Of a stretch of DNA of 64,000 nt, positions 6,160 through 63,654 are shown piece by piece (positions within the stretch are counted from its first letter, which is position 1; each line of letters starts with the position of its first letter). The stretch spans positions 971,463 through 1,035,462 of the forward strand of contig OZ241962.1 in NCBI GenBank assembly GCA_965203995.1, written 5' to 3'. A program made the position numbers and the translations under genes. Source of the DNA: Dehalococcoidia bacterium. GTDB lineage: Bacteria; Chloroflexota; Dehalococcoidia; Bin125. Under the pieces are notes generated by a model. That model was not told the origin of the DNA, did not search any database, and was given only the letters and a program-made list of their open reading frames with translations.

Positions 6160-7605
6160 ATGCCCGCCACTGAAATTCCCGCCGACATCGTCCGCGCCTA
6201 CGACATGCGCGGCACGACCCCCGGTCAGATCGATGCCCGGGTCGCGTCGCGAGTCGGCCACGCCTTCGCCCAGTGGCTCCTCGATCGCGGCGCGACCTCA
6301 ATCGTCGTCGGACACGACACCCGCGCCAGCTCGCCCGACCTCTACGAAGCAGCCGTCGACGGCGCGCTGGCGGCCGGCATCGACGTCCACGCCGCCGGTC
6401 TCGCGCCCACGCCCGTGATCGGCTGGTCCGTCGACCGCGAATCGCTGGGCGGCGGCCTGATCGTCACCGCCAGTCACAACCCGCCCGAGTTCAACGGCTT
6501 CAAGCTGCTCGCCGAGCAGGCCCAACCGCTCCTGCCCGAAGAAATCCTGCACGTCGCGAGCCATCCGTTCAGAACCGGGTCCGCGGCCGGCGCGCGGCAC
6601 GCGTTCGATGCCGCGGGACCCTATCTCGCGCTGCTGCGGCGCCGCTTCGGCGACACCGCCGGCCCGGGCATGCGCGTCGCCATCGACGCCGGCAATGGGG
6701 CCGCGGCGGTCACCGCGCCCGCTGCCCTGCTCAACGCAGGCGCTCGACTGCATGCCCTACGCACGACCTCGAGACCGACCCTCAAGATCGCCGCCGACCC
6801 GCAGAATCCGGAGACGATGCGCGAGCTGGCCCGCGTCGTGCGCACCACCGGCGCGGAACTCGGGATCGCCTGGGACGGCGACGGCGACCGCATCGGCGTG
6901 CTCGACCACCTGGGCCGGCGCTACGAGGCCGACTGGCTCACGGCCGTCCTCGCTCGGCCGCTCCTGGCCCGCGTGCCCGGATCGGAAATCCTGCTCGACC
7001 TCAAGACCAGCAGCAGCGCCATCGACGATCTGCGCCGCCGCGGCGGACGCCCCCTCAGCGCCCGGACCGGCTATTCCTTCTTCCGCCGCATGATGCGCGA
7101 GCAGCGAATCGCCTTCGGCGGCGAGACCAGCGGACACATCATGTTCGGACCGGAGTACCGAGCAGGCGAGGACGCGCCCTGGATCGACGACGGCGTCTAC
7201 GCCGCCTGCGCGCTGCTCGCGCACCTGTCGGCCGCGGGACGAACGCTGGCCGAGGAGATGTCGGAAATCGAACCGCGCCCGATCTCGCCCGAGCTGCGCC
7301 TGCCCTGCCCCGACGCCGACAAGACACAGGTCGCGAGCGCGTTGGGCGATTGGTTCGCGGAGCGCTATCCAATGTCCGAAATCGACCGCAGCGACGGCGC
7401 CCGCGTACTGCTCGACGACGGTTGGCTCCACGCCCGTGCCTCGAACACCGCCCCGGCCCTGAGCCTGCGCTTCGAGGCCCGCGACGAACCCGGCTACCGG
7501 CGCCTGGCGGAACAACTGCACGTCGCGCTGCGCCTGCATCCGCAGGTCGAAGACACGGCTCAGTTGCAGCATCCGCCGATCGTCGGCCCACAGACCCTCA
7601 CCTGA
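6160..7605 (+). CDS. phosphomannomutase/phosphoglucomutase family protein (paralog 1)
   Basis: RAYDMRG, TASHNP, DGDGDR, GGETSGH, RASNT motifs. Confidence 0.92.
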   Translation: MPATEIPADIVRAYDMRGTTPGQIDARVASRVGHAFAQWLLDRGATSIVVGHDTRASSPDLYEAAVDGALAAGIDVHAAGLAPTPVIGWSVDRESLGGGLIVTASHNPPEFNGFKLLAEQAQPLLPEEILHVASHPFRTGSAAGARHAFDAAGPYLALLRRRFGDTAGPGMRVAIDAGNGAAAVTAPAALLNAGARLHALRTTSRPTLKIAADPQNPETMRELARVVRTTGAELGIAWDGDGDRIGVLDHLGRRYEADWLTAVLARPLLARVPGSEILLDLKTSSSAIDDLRRRGGRPLSARTGYSFFRRMMREQRIAFGGETSGHIMFGPEYRAGEDAPWIDDGVYAACALLAHLSAAGRTLAEEMSEIEPRPISPELRLPCPDADKTQVASALGDWFAERYPMSEIDRSDGARVLLDDGWLHARASNTAPALSLRFEARDEPGYRRLAEQLHVALRLHPQVEDTAQLQHPPIVGPQTLT

Positions 7606-8287
7606 CGAACAGCCCGACGCCGAGCCGCCGGGCCAGTTGCTCAACCTCATCCGACGGCGCTTCCTCCACCACTAACGTGGCCCGCACCGTTCCCGATTGG
7701 CCGTCTCGCGTCCGGTCGGCCAGAGATTGTTCCGCCTCGAGCACGGCGCGCATCTTGACCAACGCGAACAGCGTCTGCCGCAGCTCGTGCGGCTCTGCGC
7801 CTCGCGGACGGACCTCGATGATCAAGGCGTCCGACTCGCCGATGAACGCCGCGTCCGACTCGTCGCCCGACGGAAACCAGCGCTCGGTCGTGCCGGCAGA
7901 CCCGTCCGGCGCGCCCAGGGCCTCCCCGTTGGCCGCCGCCCACTCCTTCAGCCCCCGATGGGCCGAACTCTCCGCCGTGCCCGAGCGCGTCTTGGTCGGC
8001 GGCAAACCGAAGGCGTAGATGCCCGCCGTCACCCAGTCGTACGTCTGCAGGGCCGCGAGCTGATCGGCCGTGGGACTGCCGGCGAGCAGCGTCCGCAGAT
8101 CGGGCGCGTCGGGATACATCTCAGACAGCCGCTGCTGCATCCCGTCCGCAACGCCACTCAACTCCGACGCGTCCGACAATACCAACCGCGCCAGCGCCGC
8201 GCCGGCGTCGGCCGCCTCGCCTTTGCGCGCGGACTTGGTCAGGAAGCGGTAGAGGCTGCGTTGGCGGTCGATCTCGGTAGGCGGCAT
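7598..8287 (-). CDS. hypothetical protein, probable degenerate PD-(D/E)xK nuclease fold
   Basis: ESSAHRGLKEW...FPSGDESD...IIEVR...LVKMRAVL pattern; TACCCT -10 six nt upstream of ATG. Confidence 0.6.
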   Translation of the reverse strand: MPPTEIDRQRSLYRFLTKSARKGEAADAGAALARLVLSDASELSGVADGMQQRLSEMYPDAPDLRTLLAGSPTADQLAALQTYDWVTAGIYAFGLPPTKTRSGTAESSAHRGLKEWAAANGEALGAPDGSAGTTERWFPSGDESDAAFIGESDALIIEVRPRGAEPHELRQTLFALVKMRAVLEAEQSLADRTRDGQSGTVRATLVVEEAPSDEVEQLARRLGVGLFVR

Positions 8288-8306
8288 GGGCGTAGGGTAG
8301 GGAGCG

Positions 8307-9740
8307 ATGATCGCCGCCGTGCCCCGCGAGATCTTCCACGCCTACGACATTCGCGGCCGCGCCGTCGGCGCCGGCGCGTCGCTCACGCCCGACCTCGCCT
8401 TGCGCGTCGGCTTGGCCTTCGGCGAGCTGGTCAGGACAGACGAACAGGCCGAGCAGGTCGTGGTCGGCGGCGACCTGCGCCGCTCCACGCCCGCCCTGCA
8501 ACAGGCCGCCGTCGCCGGACTGCTCGACGCCGGTCTCGACATCGTCGACATCGGCCGGGCGCCGTCGCCGCTCGTCTACTGGACCACGGCATTGCTGACC
8601 CGGGAGCGACCCACCGCCGGACTCGTCGTCACCGCCTCGCACAATCCGCCCGACGACAACGGGATCAAGCTGCTTCATACCGACGCCATGCCGCTCACGC
8701 CGGAGCAGATCCAGTCGGTCGCCGACCGCGTGGCGTCGGGAGTCGCCGCCGCCAATCGTCAGGGCGAGCGCAGGCTCTGGAGCCCGCGACCGGACTACAT
8801 CCGCAGCCTGGCCGAGTCGTTCTCTCTGCCGCGTCCGCTGCGGGTCGCCATCGATCCCGGCAACGGCGCCGCCACCGTGACGGCAGCCGCGGCGTTGCGG
8901 GCGATCGGCTGCGAAGTATTCGCGATCAACGACGATCCGGAGGAGACCGAACCGGCCCATCCCGCCGATCCGCAGCATGCTCGCAACGTCGCGGAGCTGG
9001 CCTCGTTCGTCTCCGACTCAGCCGCCGACCTGGGCTTCGCCTTCGACGGCGACGGCGATCGGCTCGGCCTCGTCGACGAGCTGGGACGCCGCGCCCCGCC
9101 CGACCGGGTGCTCGCCTTGCTCGCCCAGGACTGGCTCGCGTCGCATCCCGGGGCCGCCATGCATGTCGACGTGAAGACCTCGCAGGCAGTCGTCGACCAC
9201 ATCCACCGTCTGGGCGGCCGCGCCGTCTTCGGACCCGTCGGACACTCGCTCGGCAAGTACGCCATGCGCGACGCGGGAATCGACTTCGGCGGCGAGGCCT
9301 CGACCCACTACTTCTACCGGATCGACGACCCGCCCCACATCAGCGACGACGCCGTCCGCACGGCCTGCCGCCTGGCGCGCCTCGCGTCCGGGTCGCCGCT
9401 CGCGCCGCTGCTCGACTCGATTCCCCGCTTCGTCACCTCGCCCGAAGTGAAGATCGACTGCCCCGACCCGATCAAACACCGCACCGCGCGGGCCATCGCC
9501 GACGCCGCCCGCAGGCGCTGGCCGCTCAACGAGATCGACGGCGCGCGGATCGACCTCTCAGGCGAGGCCGAGGGCGCGTGGTGCCTCGTCCGAGCCTCCA
9601 ACACGACGCCCGTCCTGACCGTGGTGGTCGAAGCGGCGACCGACGACGGCTACGACACCGCGCGGCGGATCGCGGCCGATCTGCTCGCCGACCGGCAGCT
9701 CGATCCCGCGCCGCTGCTCAGTCAACCGCCGCTTGACTGA
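8307..9740 (+). CDS. phosphomannomutase/phosphoglucomutase family protein (paralog 2)
   Basis: HAYDIRG, TASHNP, DGDGDR, GGEASTH, RASNT motifs. Confidence 0.92.
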   Translation: MIAAVPREIFHAYDIRGRAVGAGASLTPDLALRVGLAFGELVRTDEQAEQVVVGGDLRRSTPALQQAAVAGLLDAGLDIVDIGRAPSPLVYWTTALLTRERPTAGLVVTASHNPPDDNGIKLLHTDAMPLTPEQIQSVADRVASGVAAANRQGERRLWSPRPDYIRSLAESFSLPRPLRVAIDPGNGAATVTAAAALRAIGCEVFAINDDPEETEPAHPADPQHARNVAELASFVSDSAADLGFAFDGDGDRLGLVDELGRRAPPDRVLALLAQDWLASHPGAAMHVDVKTSQAVVDHIHRLGGRAVFGPVGHSLGKYAMRDAGIDFGGEASTHYFYRIDDPPHISDDAVRTACRLARLASGSPLAPLLDSIPRFVTSPEVKIDCPDPIKHRTARAIADAARRRWPLNEIDGARIDLSGEAEGAWCLVRASNTTPVLTVVVEAATDDGYDTARRIAADLLADRQLDPAPLLSQPPLD

Positions 9741-19235: not shown

Positions 19236-19267
19236 GCCCTCACCCTAACCCTCTCCCTCGGGGAGAG
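19236..19267 (+). repeat. REP-like palindrome copy A (CCCTCACCCTAACCCTCTCCC-TCG-GGGAGAG)
   Basis: Hairpin; essentially identical in reverse complement to 60403-60434. Confidence 0.85.
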
Positions 19268-19272
19268 AGAAT

Positions 19273-55878: not shown

Positions 55879-55911
55879 CCCTCTCCCTTTGGGAGAGGGC
55901 TGGGGTGAGGG
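55879..55911 (-). repeat. REP-like palindrome copy C
   Basis: CCCTCTCCC-TTT-GGGAGAGGG-CTGGGGTGAGGG. Confidence 0.8.
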
Positions 55912-60373: not shown

Positions 60374-60400
60374 CCGCCCGCGCCCGACTCCCTTCCGATC

Positions 60401-60434
60401 CCCTCTCCCCGAGGGAGAGGGTTAGGGTGAGGGC
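60401..60434 (-). repeat. REP-like palindrome copy B
   Basis: CCCTCTCCC-CGA-GGGAGAGGGTTAGGGTGAGGGC; reverse complement of copy A. Confidence 0.85.
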
Positions 60435-60566
60435 CCCTCCGAGGTTAGGCGTGGAAGACCGGACTTCGCGCTCGGGGAGGGGCGGAAGCTGGGTATGCGG
60501 TGGCCGGGTTCGCTTGATGGCTGGGACCTGGGGTGCGCGCGGAGAGAAAAAAACCGCGGACGGGGA

Positions 60567-60929
60567 TTAGGGAGGTTCGTCCTCGTCGGGGTTGGAGGCT
60601 TCGTCGTCTTCCTCGTCCTGCTCGGACTCGGCCTTGGCTTCCGCTTCGGCCTTGGCCCTGGCTTCGGCCCTGGCCTTGGCTCTGACTTCCTCGCGGGCGA
60701 TCAGGGCGTCGATCTGTTCATCGCTCAGAGAGGCCATCAGAAGGGCGGGATCCATCGGTTCGGGCGGCTGCTGGGCGTCAGTCGGGTGCTGACCGCGTGG
60801 GAAGAGGTCGAGCAAGCGGCTGAGCGAATCGAGCGCCCGGACCTGGACGTAGCCGCGCTCCTCCGGGTCGTTGGCGATCTCCCAATAGCGGTCATGGATG
60901 GTTTGGCGGGTTGCCTGTGGGGTGGTCAT
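60567..60929 (-). CDS. small protein with terminase-small-subunit-like motif and acidic tail
   Basis: WEIA...VRALDSLSRLLDLF resembles TerS helix ALELLGKHLGMF; LSDEQID; AAAGGA RBS; TACCAT -10. Confidence 0.55.
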   Translation of the reverse strand: MTTPQATRQTIHDRYWEIANDPEERGYVQVRALDSLSRLLDLFPRGQHPTDAQQPPEPMDPALLMASLSDEQIDALIAREEVRAKARAEARAKAEAEAKAESEQDEEDDEASNPDEDEPP

Positions 60930-60945
60930 GGGCGGTCCTTTCCGT

Positions 60946-61069
60946 GAACATGCGTTTGCGTTGATGGTATAGGAACGGGCGTTCTGTGGTTGTGTCCTGG
61001 TTGGCGATCAGTGTTGGGGGATGCAGATTGGGACAGAGGCGAACGCAGACGAGACACGAACTGATGTAC
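60946..61069. promoter_or_regulatory. three LexA-type boxes in the divergent promoter region
   Basis: GAACATGCGTTT 60946-57, perfect GAACGGGCGTTC 60973-84, GAACTGATGTAC 61058-69. Confidence 0.75.
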
Positions 61070-61133
61070 TGTTGAACATTCGACGCGGTTGCCGTGAGGA
61101 TGCGGCCGGCGGAAGTGTTGAGAGGATTGGACC

Positions 61134-62693
61134 ATGGGTGATGTCGACGACAAGCGGATCGATTGGCGGATCACGGGATTTCAGAACTATCGGGAGTTCG
61201 TCCCGACCGAGCGCCAGCGTCAGCTCTACGACGCGCTTCTGAGCGGGCCGTGCCCGGGCGACGACGAGGACGTGGGGGCGGATTCCCTCACCCTGCTCGG
61301 ATACGGCGGAGCGATGGGCGGGGGGAAGACCCGGGCGATTGCCGAGTTGGCGATCGACGCGGCGCTGGCCTTCCCCGGCAACAACGTGCTGGTCGCGCGG
61401 CACCACCTTTCGGACCTCTCCTCGACCACGATGAAGGAGTTCTTCGCGGTCTGCCCGCCCGAGATGATCGAGCGGCGGCAGCAGGCGCCGACCACGCTGG
61501 TACAACTGCGGCTGCCGGGCTGGAAGTCCGGCCAGCACTCAACCGTCAACTTCCGACACCTCTCCGACTGGCAGGGTCTCGGCTCGCAGCAGTACGGCGC
61601 GGTGCTCATAGACGAGGCCGGTCAGGTCGACGAGGACGCCGCGCTGATGCTGCTCACCCGCCTGCGCCACCCGGCTCAGCCGCAGCGCTGGTTCGTGGCC
61701 GCCTCCAACCCCTGGCCGGGCTGGTTCCAGCGCTGGTTCGTGCGGCGCGAACTGCCCGAGGACGCGCTCAGAGCGGCGAGCGGACAGGTCGAGTTCATCC
61801 CGGCCAGGATCGCCGACAACCCGCACCTGCCCGACAACTACGCCGAGATCAACCACGCCCTGATGCCGCCCTCCTGGCGAGAGCGTTTCATCGAGGGCCG
61901 CTTCGACTCGCTGATGAACCGCGTCTACCCCGACTTCGACCCCGAGCGCCATCTGTGGCACGCGCCCCTGCCCAGGTTCAAGTACTTCATCGGCGGCCTC
62001 GACTTCGGCGGCCAGACCGAGACCGCCCATCACACCGCCGCCATCGTCGCCGGCCTCGCCCGGAACCCCCTTTCCGACCATCTTGTCGACCATCTTGTCG
62101 ACCCATTTGCCGACCCGTATGCCGACCCGTTCTCCGACTTCCCTCGCTTCCCCCCTGCGGGGGGAAGCTCCCGCGCAGCGGGTGAAGGGGGGATCGGAAC
62201 CGACCCACGCCACCGGTTCACCCTGATCCGCCTGGCCGAGTTCGAGGACCGCGGCCCCGGCGTGATCCAGCGGCTGGAACAATGGCAGCGAGCCTGCACG
62301 AAGCGTTTCGGCCGCATCCGCTGGGCCGCCGACCGCTCCCAATCGGCCTGGATCGACCACCAGAAGCGCCAGCGCATGAACGTCGTGCCGGCTTCGGGCG
62401 CGCCGGGCTCGGTGCTCTACGGCGTCAACCTGGTCTACGAATACCTCGCCGCCGACCCGCCCGTGTCCTTCTACACGCCCGAACTCACGCAGTTCCCGCT
62501 GCGCATGAGCGAGTACGTCTGGCAAACCGGCGACGACCCCGATCCGAAGCCCAGGAAGCGAAACGACGACCTGCTCGACGCCGACCGCTACATGCACGAA
62601 CTCGTCCAGCAGCTCCCCCGCCCCTTCCGCCCCCGCCGGATCAAGAACACCCCCCTCCAGTTCGGCCGCGCCGCCCTGATGACCGACCACTGA
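61134..62693 (+). CDS. phage terminase large subunit (PBSX/Terminase_3/6-like)
   Basis: Q motif PTERQ, Walker A GGAMGGGKT, Walker B VLIDEAG, coupling motif ASNP, nuclease GLDFG, ADRS and NDDLLDADRY. Confidence 0.88.
   Translation: MGDVDDKRIDWRITGFQNYREFVPTERQRQLYDALLSGPCPGDDEDVGADSLTLLGYGGAMGGGKTRAIAELAIDAALAFPGNNVLVARHHLSDLSSTTMKEFFAVCPPEMIERRQQAPTTLVQLRLPGWKSGQHSTVNFRHLSDWQGLGSQQYGAVLIDEAGQVDEDAALMLLTRLRHPAQPQRWFVAASNPWPGWFQRWFVRRELPEDALRAASGQVEFIPARIADNPHLPDNYAEINHALMPPSWRERFIEGRFDSLMNRVYPDFDPERHLWHAPLPRFKYFIGGLDFGGQTETAHHTAAIVAGLARNPLSDHLVDHLVDPFADPYADPFSDFPRFPPAGGSSRAAGEGGIGTDPRHRFTLIRLAEFEDRGPGVIQRLEQWQRACTKRFGRIRWAADRSQSAWIDHQKRQRMNVVPASGAPGSVLYGVNLVYEYLAADPPVSFYTPELTQFPLRMSEYVWQTGDDPDPKPRKRNDDLLDADRYMHELVQQLPRPFRPRRIKNTPLQFGRAALMTDH
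62073..62192 (+). repeat. six 12-bp tandem repeats plus REP-like palindrome copy E, in-frame within the terminase gene
   Basis: TCCGACCATCTT GTCGACCATCTT GTCGACCCATTT GCCGACCCGTAT GCCGACCCGTTC TCCGACTTCCCT, then GCTTCCCCCC-TGC-GGGGGGAAGC. Confidence 0.8.
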
Positions 62694-62844
62694 GCTGAAG
62701 ATGAGGGAGTGCGTTCTTGCAGAGGTCGAGGTCTGGGCCCCGCGTCGGAGCGCGGGGCGACGGAAGTTGGGGAGTGGCTACAGACCACTGACCCGGGCAC
62801 GTGCAGATGTACACTCGGTTCGAGACCAACGACCTGGAGGACCC

Positions 62845-63654
62845 ATGACCACCCTGACCGCCCCGGCGACGGAGACGCTGCTCTACGAGGAGCGCGGCCA
62901 CGTCGCGATCATCACCCTCAACCGGCCCGAGCGGCTCAACGCGATTTCCAACGACATGCTGGAAGCGCTCTCGGCCCAGCTCATCGCCTGTCAGCGCGAG
63001 CCGGAGATTCGCGTCATCGTCCTGACCGGCGCGGGACGCGGTTTCTGCTCCGGGCTCGACCTCGTCGACCAGCAGCAGCGCATGTCGACCGGCGAGGGCC
63101 GGCCCGGCTATTCGCTCTTCGACCTGCGCGACGCGCCGCCGGTCGTGCTGCAGAAGATGGACAAGCCGGTGATCTGCGCGCTCAACGGCGCGGCCGCCGG
63201 CTACGGCATGGACATGGCGCTGCTGGCCGACATCCGGATCGCCTCGGAGCAGGCCAAGATGGGCGCCGTCTTCGCCCGCCGCGGCGTGCTGCCCGAGTCG
63301 GGCGGGACCTGGATCCTGCCCCGCCTGCTGGGCTGGGCGCGGGCCGCCGAGGTCGCCTTCCGCGGCCGCGTGCTCGACGCGCAGGAGTCGCTCGAGGTCG
63401 GCCTGGTCAACGAGGTCGTGCCGCACGACGAGCTGATGACGCGCACGCTGGAACTGGCCGACGAGATCGCCGCCAACGCGCCGCTCTCGGTCCAGGCGAC
63501 CAAGCGGATGATGCGCCTGGGCATGGACGAGCCGTTCGAGGCCGCCGTCGACCACATCTACTTGCAACTGCTGCCGCTCTTCGGCTCCGAGGACTTCAAA
63601 GAGGGAGTCCGCTCCTTCATGGAAAAGCGCGACCCCAACTTCCAGGGGAGGTAG
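62845..63654 (+). CDS. enoyl-CoA hydratase/crotonase family
   Basis: LNRPERLNA, FCSGLDL, NGAAAGYG, PESGG, SEDFKEG. Confidence 0.93.
   Translation: MTTLTAPATETLLYEERGHVAIITLNRPERLNAISNDMLEALSAQLIACQREPEIRVIVLTGAGRGFCSGLDLVDQQQRMSTGEGRPGYSLFDLRDAPPVVLQKMDKPVICALNGAAAGYGMDMALLADIRIASEQAKMGAVFARRGVLPESGGTWILPRLLGWARAAEVAFRGRVLDAQESLEVGLVNEVVPHDELMTRTLELADEIAANAPLSVQATKRMMRLGMDEPFEAAVDHIYLQLLPLFGSEDFKEGVRSFMEKRDPNFQGR

Follow-up and report, generated by a model that had tools for sequence, protein, structure and literature searches.

A terminase gene is usually taken as a hallmark of a phage, whether complete or in decay. Phage satellites known so far measure 5–18 kb. They have an integrase along with regulators and replication genes, and in most of them the large terminase (TerL) used is that of the helper. 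Gene transfer agents (GTAs) can have scattered genes, and RcGTA is affected by LexA. Packaging-redirecting phage satellites, such as phage-inducible chromosomal islands (PICI) and Staphylococcus aureus pathogenicity islands (SaPI) with their own small terminase TerS, Escherichia coli PICI with Rpp, and PICI-like elements (PLE), are described in PMC6739421, PMC10085698, and 10.1101/2024.04.22.590561, and some of them are induced along with the phage cycle. The subject here is the locus at positions 60567–62693 of a 64,000-nucleotide stretch of DNA (contig OZ241962.1, positions 971,463 to 1,035,462; the window in what follows) from a sponge-associated Dehalococcoidia bacterium, the genome of which is a single contig of 3.10 Mb and 96% complete. 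The locus represents one of the copies of a two-gene cassette of phage origin, made up of a terS-like gene and a large terminase gene. Set against the usual view of terminases, an intact terminase pair has here long been kept by selection, as several diverged copies, in genomes in which no head genes were detected, and apparently behind the DNA-damage switch of the host. No description of terminase-only cassettes was found in those parts of the literature that were searched.

The terminase pair in the window

The TerL gene (P0001; 61134–62693, + strand) encodes a protein of 519 aa with an ATPase and an RNase H-like nuclease domain, as recognized from motifs, from Pfam, PHROG, and NCBIfam profiles, and from the fold modelled with AlphaFold2 (AF2). 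GGAMGGGKT (aa 58–66), IDEAG (aa 159–163, in a Walker B region spanning aa 157–163), and ASNP (aa 190–193) are its ATPase motifs, and an ASCE-type Walker A, a Walker B, and a coupling (C) motif are thereby all present. The nuclease motifs are GLDFG (aa 288–292) and DDLLDADRY (aa 478–486), with acidic residues D290, D400, and the D478–D484 cluster on an RNase H-like fold. The Pfam family Terminase_3 (PF04466) was matched with 31.7 bits, above the cut-off of 23.2, and the PHROG family phrog_2 over aa 21–496 (E 3.7e-26). The PBSX-family equivalog TIGR01547 gave 43.9 bits, below its curated cut-off of 105.05. In a structure search with the AF2 model (pLDDT 80, built on 17 relatives), the first matches were full-length large terminases, D6E (E 3e-21) being followed by those of Sf6, HK97, and T4, and the isolated nuclease domains of P22 and SPP1 were matched with TMt of 0.71–0.72. 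The nearest TerL proteins of cultured phages are 23–29% identical to it, over the ATPase half. G+C content at third codon positions (GC3) is 0.89 in TerL and 0.73–0.97 in the neighbouring open reading frames (ORFs) retained by the filter. An earlier reading of the window from its sequence only, referred to below as the sequence-only reading, had described a full-length TerL with intact motifs and host-like codons; every motif that it quoted is present, the fold is that of large terminases, and the codon use is within the range of the neighbours.

The terS-like gene (P0002; 60567–60929, − strand) encodes a protein of 120 aa with a conserved two-helix core, a long helix, and an acidic tail ending in DEDEPP. 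The terS-like proteins of the copies are homologous, with the common two-helix core ..A...N.P.YV...A...LAR..GLF, and in most of them the tail ends in DEDEPP or a close variant. The AF2 model is all-helical (pLDDT 83, predicted TM-score 0.38). Prediction of a complex of TerL with the small protein scored 0.00 against a mark of 0.32 and is informative neither way. As there is no family match, the name terS-like is based on where the gene lies, on the overlap with TerL seen in most copies, and on the conserved acidic tail. Of the divergent TerS-like gene of the sequence-only reading, the divergent 120-aa gene stands, while its TerS character leans on position, the common motif, and weak structural hints.

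In most co-directional cassettes across the family, the terS stop overlaps the TerL start, the place in which a TerS gene is expected. Paralogs C and D of the same genome also have this phage-like layout, with both genes read in one direction and terS running into the TerL start. In the window copy, the homologous gene is inverted relative to TerL, and comparison of the copies indicates that the divergent layout is a derived variant of the ordinary co-directional pair. Just past the terS stop, at 60530–60566, the terS strand reads CCGCGGTTTTTTTC; its counterpart in co-directional copies codes for RRFFPT, with which the TerL core begins, and the inverted A-type segment seems to carry a short relic of the TerL 5' end. 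The stretch is present in seven sequencing runs from four studies, two of them labelled sponge metagenome and none of the runs being RNA, and the divergent terS–spacer–TerL layout recurs in independent assemblies from those runs.

Distribution, selection, and mobility of the cassette

Four TerL paralogs are coded in the genome, namely A (the window copy), B (90% identical to A), D (70%), and C (55%), and no phage genes were found near any of the four. A and B have in common a stretch of 2235 bp with 83% nt identity (60480–62693 of the window; 7347–9560 of A against 7365–9524 of B), which includes terS, TerL, and the spacer between them. The same promoter recurs in front of terS-type genes at nine loci, and at five of these TerL is missing. 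BLAST adds two lone terS copies, which gives at least seven in the genome. What had been taken for a single host-captured orphan is one of four cassettes, of a kind that is copied within genomes.

The two-gene cassette is nearly universal in four related genera of sponge-associated Dehalococcoidia. A protein query gave matches in 22 of 24 genomes of the genus and in none of 16 genomes of other families of the class. A profile search found the TerL family in 33 of 36 genomes of the genus and in 8/9, 2/2, and 1/1 genomes of three further genera, but in 0/16 genomes of six other genera of the same family. It returned 76 near-full-length matches, 75 of them without an internal stop, plus six partial ones, and the TerL copy number per genome is 0–5. 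A scan of species representatives gave 73 loci, of which 71 are in Dehalococcoidia or Chloroflexota records; of the other two, one is on a 2.5-kb contig from a Gammaproteobacteria bin, and one, a relative with 32% identity, is in Saccharibacteria.

Integrity was assessed on a set of 76 loci, composed of the first 72 scan loci and the four copies of the genome itself. A single open frame was found in 75 of the 76 TerL loci, which span 45–100% identity. Walker A, Walker B, ASNP, GLDFG, ADRSQ, and DDLxDADRY do not vary among the sequences compared (75/75), nor do D290, D400, and the D478–D484 cluster; the invariance of ASNP is not independent evidence, as the scan pattern demanded an intact ASNPxPGW. 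The ratio of nonsynonymous to synonymous substitution rates (dN/dS, Nei–Gojobori) has a median of 0.136 and a range of 0.076–0.338 over 73 pairs at 80–99% identity with usable dS; it is 0.16 for A versus B and 0.10–0.16 among recently copied paralogs. These ratios indicate that TerL is under purifying selection. Portal or head genes do not stand beside TerL, no recurrent phage neighbour was found across 72 loci, and no other prophage gene adjoins any of the 76 copies.

It is very improbable that the cassettes are inert leftovers of decayed prophages, open by chance or because of recent arrival. Some decay does occur: there are short N-terminal fragments and terS genes on their own, a frameshift in one copy (L065 / G019), a stop in one, and repeat-derived sequence inserted in frame within TerL ORFs. 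Against this stand the open frames, the invariant catalytic motifs, and the low dN/dS, from which it follows that the cassettes are not neutrally decaying remnants, the lack of prophage neighbours, and the steady occupation of one chromosomal site described below. The explanation is largely refuted, and neither the nesting among prophages nor the neutral evolution that the sequence-only reading had named as grounds for giving up its proposal was found.

Loci were grouped by common flanking genes, and the phylogeny was computed in FastTree. Of the 35 rows in the D-type clade, 29 are at one conserved site, S1; about 30 genomes have a copy there, which suggests that it has been inherited vertically for a long time. 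Five sites are represented among the 22 rows of the A-type clade, and copies from the same genome pair in the tree (A with B, L053 with L054, and L055 with L056), a sign of gene conversion or of copying in the recent past. In one genome, five copies occupy five unique sites, with only 1.9–2.2 kb in common at 87–97% identity; the copied unit there consists of the two genes and the promoter. As judged from these alignments, the two-gene unit of about 2 kb has been copied within genomes to different chromosomal sites.

The site of the window copy lies downstream of a ClpC-type AAA+ gene, with Hsp20 and DnaJ genes further upstream, and is followed after TerL by genes for enoyl-CoA hydratase (crotonase), DinB_2, and luciferase-like monooxygenase, so that the location between clpC and a crotonase is as the sequence-only reading gave it. 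Flanking genes were called with an own ORF and GC3 filter, and some spurious antisense ORFs are included. Among 30 clpC/crotonase loci of the genus, TerL is present in seven, a remnant in one, 21 are empty, and one is cut by a contig end; seven of the 29 readable loci are thus occupied, in three orientations and with one occupant frameshifted. The genome with the most similar crotonase (95%) has an empty site, and comparison of filled and empty sites places about 2.4 kb of inserted DNA between the clpC stop and the crotonase promoter. Orthologs are therefore sporadic at this site, an outcome that had been named as counting against a host-captured system, but not in the family as a whole. The enoyl-CoA hydratase ORF (62701–63654) probably begins about 40 codons downstream of 62701; its orthologs align only from residue 30–46 on, and empty-site relatives begin with ATGAC[CT]ACCCT right after a conserved GATGTACACTCG.

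Repeats resembling repetitive extragenic palindromes (REP) accompany the cassettes. They are hairpins of the form CCTCTCCC-N3-8-GGGAGAGG, with 125 exact copies in the genome and 168 at up to two mismatches, versus 19 in a reversed control. In the window they are at 19249–19269, 55879–55899, and 60401–60421; the last, with core CCCTCTCCCCGAGGGAGAGGG in a hairpin at 60390–60442, bounds the cassette on the clpC side. In sequencing-run contigs, the contig depth of the REP bin is about 20 to several hundred times that of neighbouring bins, which confirms how often the REP is repeated. Another repeat is located just after the TerL stop (62688–62763) and is found inverted on the left flank of B and D (9555–9630 of A against 7323–7248 of B, 89%). 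TerL itself carries an in-frame insertion of about 50 codons with REP-like inverted repeats (62070–62219, + strand; aa 313–362), placed in a loop of the nuclease domain. The insertion is predicted to be disordered, with pLDDT below 50 at aa 316–356, and relatives match the window TerL in two pieces, aa 19–312 and 363–504.

REP-like repeats are within 400 bp of 9/11 terS/terL loci, compared with 5.6% of random windows. Across 37 genomes of the genus, their number is 0–189 per genome; TerL is present in every one of the 31 genomes with REP, and REP is missing from the three without TerL. REP count and TerL copy number are correlated (Spearman 0.66, n = 25), the coefficient being uncorrected for relatedness. 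The idea that the number of REPs strictly depends on that of TerL copies was considered and rejected, as three genomes (G001, G041, and G044) have TerL but no REP and two others have a single TerL with 163 (G050) and 189 (G042) REPs. The association is a lead, not a result.

These data bear on the possibility that the cassette mobilises itself, with the RNase H-like nuclease of TerL, guided by the small DNA-binding protein, cutting and moving the cassette and perhaps the REP hairpins in the manner of a terminase-derived transposase. Such a role is improbable, even though the copied unit holds two genes alone, the REP-like repeats follow TerL among loci and genomes, and no Y1/RAYT transposase was found in the genome despite the 125 exact REP copies (other transposase families were not searched). 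Neither inverted-repeat ends nor target duplications were seen by eye, whether at the five recent copies or at the filled and empty clpC/crotonase sites, where repeat-array flanks blur the ends. To our knowledge, strand transfer has never been shown for a terminase. A dose relation between REP and TerL fails in the five genomes named, and the correlation may only mirror the overall load of mobile DNA and shared ancestry.

Promoters and candidate LexA operators

The intergenic spacer between terS and TerL is 204 bp long (60930–61133) and contains three LexA-type boxes. Box 1, GAACATGCGTTT (60946–60957), has one mismatch, is situated in the terS leader, and recurs in other A-type copies (103787, 171127, and 1358316). 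Box 2, GAACGGGCGTTC (60973–60984), is perfect; the −10-like hexamer TACCAT of the terS promoter (60964–60969, − strand) lies 3 nt downstream of it. Box 3, GAACTGATGTAC (61058–61069), has one mismatch and overlaps the −10-like hexamer TACTGT upstream of TerL (61067–61072, + strand). GAACATTCGACG was at first taken as the third box, until alignment of divergent spacers revealed GAACTGATGTAC as the conserved one; GAAC-N4-GTAC overlaps the TerL −10 hexamer in 6/9 aligned spacers of the divergent type. The 204-bp spacer with three boxes, one of them perfect, at both −10 elements agrees in its coordinates with the sequence-only reading.

The regions upstream of lexA in 30 genomes of the genus have, in most cases, a promoter followed by GAAC-N4-GTTC, while in the source genome (G000) and a few others the operator is GTAC-N4-GTTC. 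Box 2 matches the operator conserved at lexA in most of these genomes, and the half-sites of box 3 are the same as in the lexA operator of the source genome itself, GTACTGATGTTC. Since the lexA promoters of the genus share the box, this Cheo-type box is probably the LexA operator of the lineage. Directly after the LexA box, the lexA promoters (L018, L020–L048) have a second conserved palindrome, CCGCACACGTGCGCGG, and then an extended −10-like TGTGCTATACT; the palindrome could be the site of a second regulator or a second promoter.

Perfect boxes are not enriched in the genome, with 32 found against about 30 expected from composition, but 9/15 of those scored intergenic fall in terS-type promoters. 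A box with at most one mismatch followed within 1–4 nt by TAnnnT was found in 54/76 cassette upstream regions versus 2/415 control windows of equal size, drawn from the cassette flanks, and perfect boxes in 19/76 versus none in the control windows. This placement of boxes is far from chance. By sequence, the cassette promoters carry a candidate operator of the same type as the lexA of the genus, and the cassette is apparently switched on by DNA damage, in keeping with the LexA-type control proposed before.

Two further box loci were noticed in the genome. A perfect GAACGACTGTTC box (G000:C1:1533662) is 39 nt upstream of a 500-aa ORF that has, by eye only, the look of ImuB or a Y-family polymerase and would be a canonical SOS gene. 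A repeat of about 200–300 nt is present in seven copies, near positions 216545, 252138, 1804444, 1958789, 2455120, 2624469, and 2928824 of G000:C1 (loci L245–L249). It opens with a box and −10 layout like that of the terS promoter, 6/7 copies reading CGAAT-N4-GTTCGG and then TACAAT or a near variant; in six copies this is followed by an ORF of 30–37 aa, and three or four ATCTGAC repeats come next, with no REP nearby. A small RNA or peptide under SOS control may be encoded here. Neither this repeat nor the cassette had an Rfam match above chance.

Partner genes, possible function, and known systems

Capsid families PF05065 (HK97) and PF03864 (lambda-E) and portal families PF04860 (Phage_portal) and PF05133 (SPP1) had no match in the whole genome; tail families were not searched. 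A search for the family Portal_Mu was uninformative, as it was silent in control genomes too. The only integrase-family matches are two tyrosine recombinases at 2.26 and 2.68 Mb, far from any cassette. The absence of portal, capsid, tail, and integrase genes, seen in the window by the sequence-only reading, can thus be extended to the genome for the four portal and capsid families, with the recombinases at a distance; for tail genes it stays as it was.

Distant TerL relatives (31–42% identity) are coded on one viral and several metagenomic contigs. IMG/VR had no match when searched with a single TerL protein and one good relative when searched with an alignment, the viral contig L122 with a TerL of 38% identity; apart from TerL, this contig has nothing in common with the source genome. 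In the distant relatives, TerL is followed by a conserved gene of about 690–790 aa (L122 6529–8718, L227 9481–11667, L230 10346–12424, L236 10312–12396, L225 2713–4875, L226 2399–4765, and L229 10308–12515), then by genes of about 145 aa and about 300 aa. No name for the three was found in Pfam or PHROG. This block looks like a head module, probably of a phage lineage that has not been described, and its first gene may code for a portal. None of its three genes has a tblastn match in the source genome.

A dispersed GTA, with the cassettes as packaging genes and the head and tail genes elsewhere in the genome, had been one option of the sequence-only reading and would go well with the SOS-type control and the host-like codon use. 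It is not supported, because neither the four capsid and portal families searched nor the block of the relatives was found in this nearly complete single-contig genome, and because the other loci with a box and promoter hold only terS copies or the short repeat, where scattered structural genes under the same boxes had been proposed. A GTA also has no need of three or four divergent terminases or of a copy number varying from 0 to 5, and this explanation is quite improbable.

The preferred reading, held tentatively and at somewhat less than even confidence, is that of a packaging cassette under selection and SOS control, which is mobile and makes use of procapsids from other phages. As a terminase needs a portal-capped procapsid and the genome seems to be without one, use of foreign capsids is the most economical mechanism. 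LexA would hold the cassette silent until it is derepressed by DNA damage, the state in which temperate phages replicate as well. Next, the small protein would mark a chromosomal site close by, and TerL would cut there and dock on procapsids of another phage, infecting the cell or resident in the community. These would be filled with host DNA that includes or adjoins the cassette. Capsids would thereby be diverted from the phage, with an effect of interference or defence, and the cassette and neighbouring DNA could spread by transduction, like a minimal satellite or a lateral-transduction platform. The three diverged types within one genome (50–55% identity) could serve different helper phages. 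In the window copy, a rearrangement would have turned terS away from TerL, each gene keeping or gaining a box of its own.

Several points weigh against the capsid-exploiting cassette. No helper phage, pac site, or packaged DNA was seen, and the capsid-hijack step is an inference. Known satellites carry an integrase and replication genes, and the copied terS–terL unit has neither. The absence of head genes is based on four Pfam families and on tblastn from one phage lineage, and very divergent capsids could be missed. P0002 and 10 relatives have no Pfam, PHROG, or NCBIfam family match, and the best structural hints for P0002 are non-significant (Pam5 TerS, E 0.37; PaP3 TerS, E 1.6; SPP1-like TerS, E 2.6). 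The box and −10 pattern is missing in 22/76 cassettes, including the five recently copied ones. No promoter or terminator was found in a consensus scan, and no canonical −35 accompanies the −10 hexamers. In the window copy, the 50-residue repeat-derived insert in the nuclease domain may impair TerL.

A role without capsids is rather unlikely, although a good part of the same evidence suits it. TerL would here be an SOS-induced nuclease or translocase on naked DNA, active in repair or recombination, or in abortive infection by degrading DNA upon phage-triggered SOS. The failure to find capsid and portal genes, the joint invariance of ATPase and nuclease residues, the LexA-type boxes, and the strong purifying selection would all be explained. 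A repair enzyme is, however, expected as one stable ortholog, and here there are 0–5 copies, patchy sites, and recent amplification. PADLOC gave no match for the cassette genes, and the retained TerS-like partner with its conserved acidic tail points to an ordinary terminase holoenzyme.

It is also possible, though doubtful, that the cassettes form a new class of minimal selfish element, a 2-kb SOS-triggered terS–terL pair without integrase, replication, and capsid genes that spreads in prophage-free genomes by means of foreign procapsids or of its own terminase nuclease and the REP-like hairpins. If foreign capsids are hijacked, it would be the smallest satellite-like element known, and would provide uncultured sponge symbionts with a route of gene exchange while blunting phage attack; the chromosome around each cassette would then be a built-in platform for lateral transduction. 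If the nuclease moves DNA alone, a mobilising enzyme would have a new origin. Either way, a lone TerL in metagenome bins is not automatically a prophage or contamination.

Among described systems, the cassette resembles the terminase holoenzyme of headful tailed phages (Terminase_3 / phrog_2 lineage) in the two-domain ATPase–nuclease fold, in having all catalytic motifs, and in the small gene directly upstream that overlaps the TerL start in most copies. It differs in having no adjacent or detectable phage gene, in being multicopy and chromosomal with a LexA-type operator, and in a small protein without a match to TerS families. With GTAs of the RcGTA type and PBSX-like defective prophages it shares phage-derived packaging genes, control by host stress, and host-like composition, but those systems keep a full head–tail cluster, whereas none was found here, and from species to species the cassette differs in copy number and in position. 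REP/RAYT systems and small insertion sequences are similar in being multicopy at variable sites and in the tight association with hairpin repeats; the cassette is unlike them in that no Y1/RAYT transposase and no inverted-repeat ends or target duplications were seen and the enzyme is a terminase. By analogy, packaging-redirecting satellites could be close counterparts, as they too are chromosomal, have a packaging-specificity gene of their own, and rely, as would be expected of the cassette, on the capsids of another phage. Compared with PICI, P4, PLE, and capsid-forming PICI, the cassette is only 2 kb long, brings its own TerL, and has no integrase or replication module.

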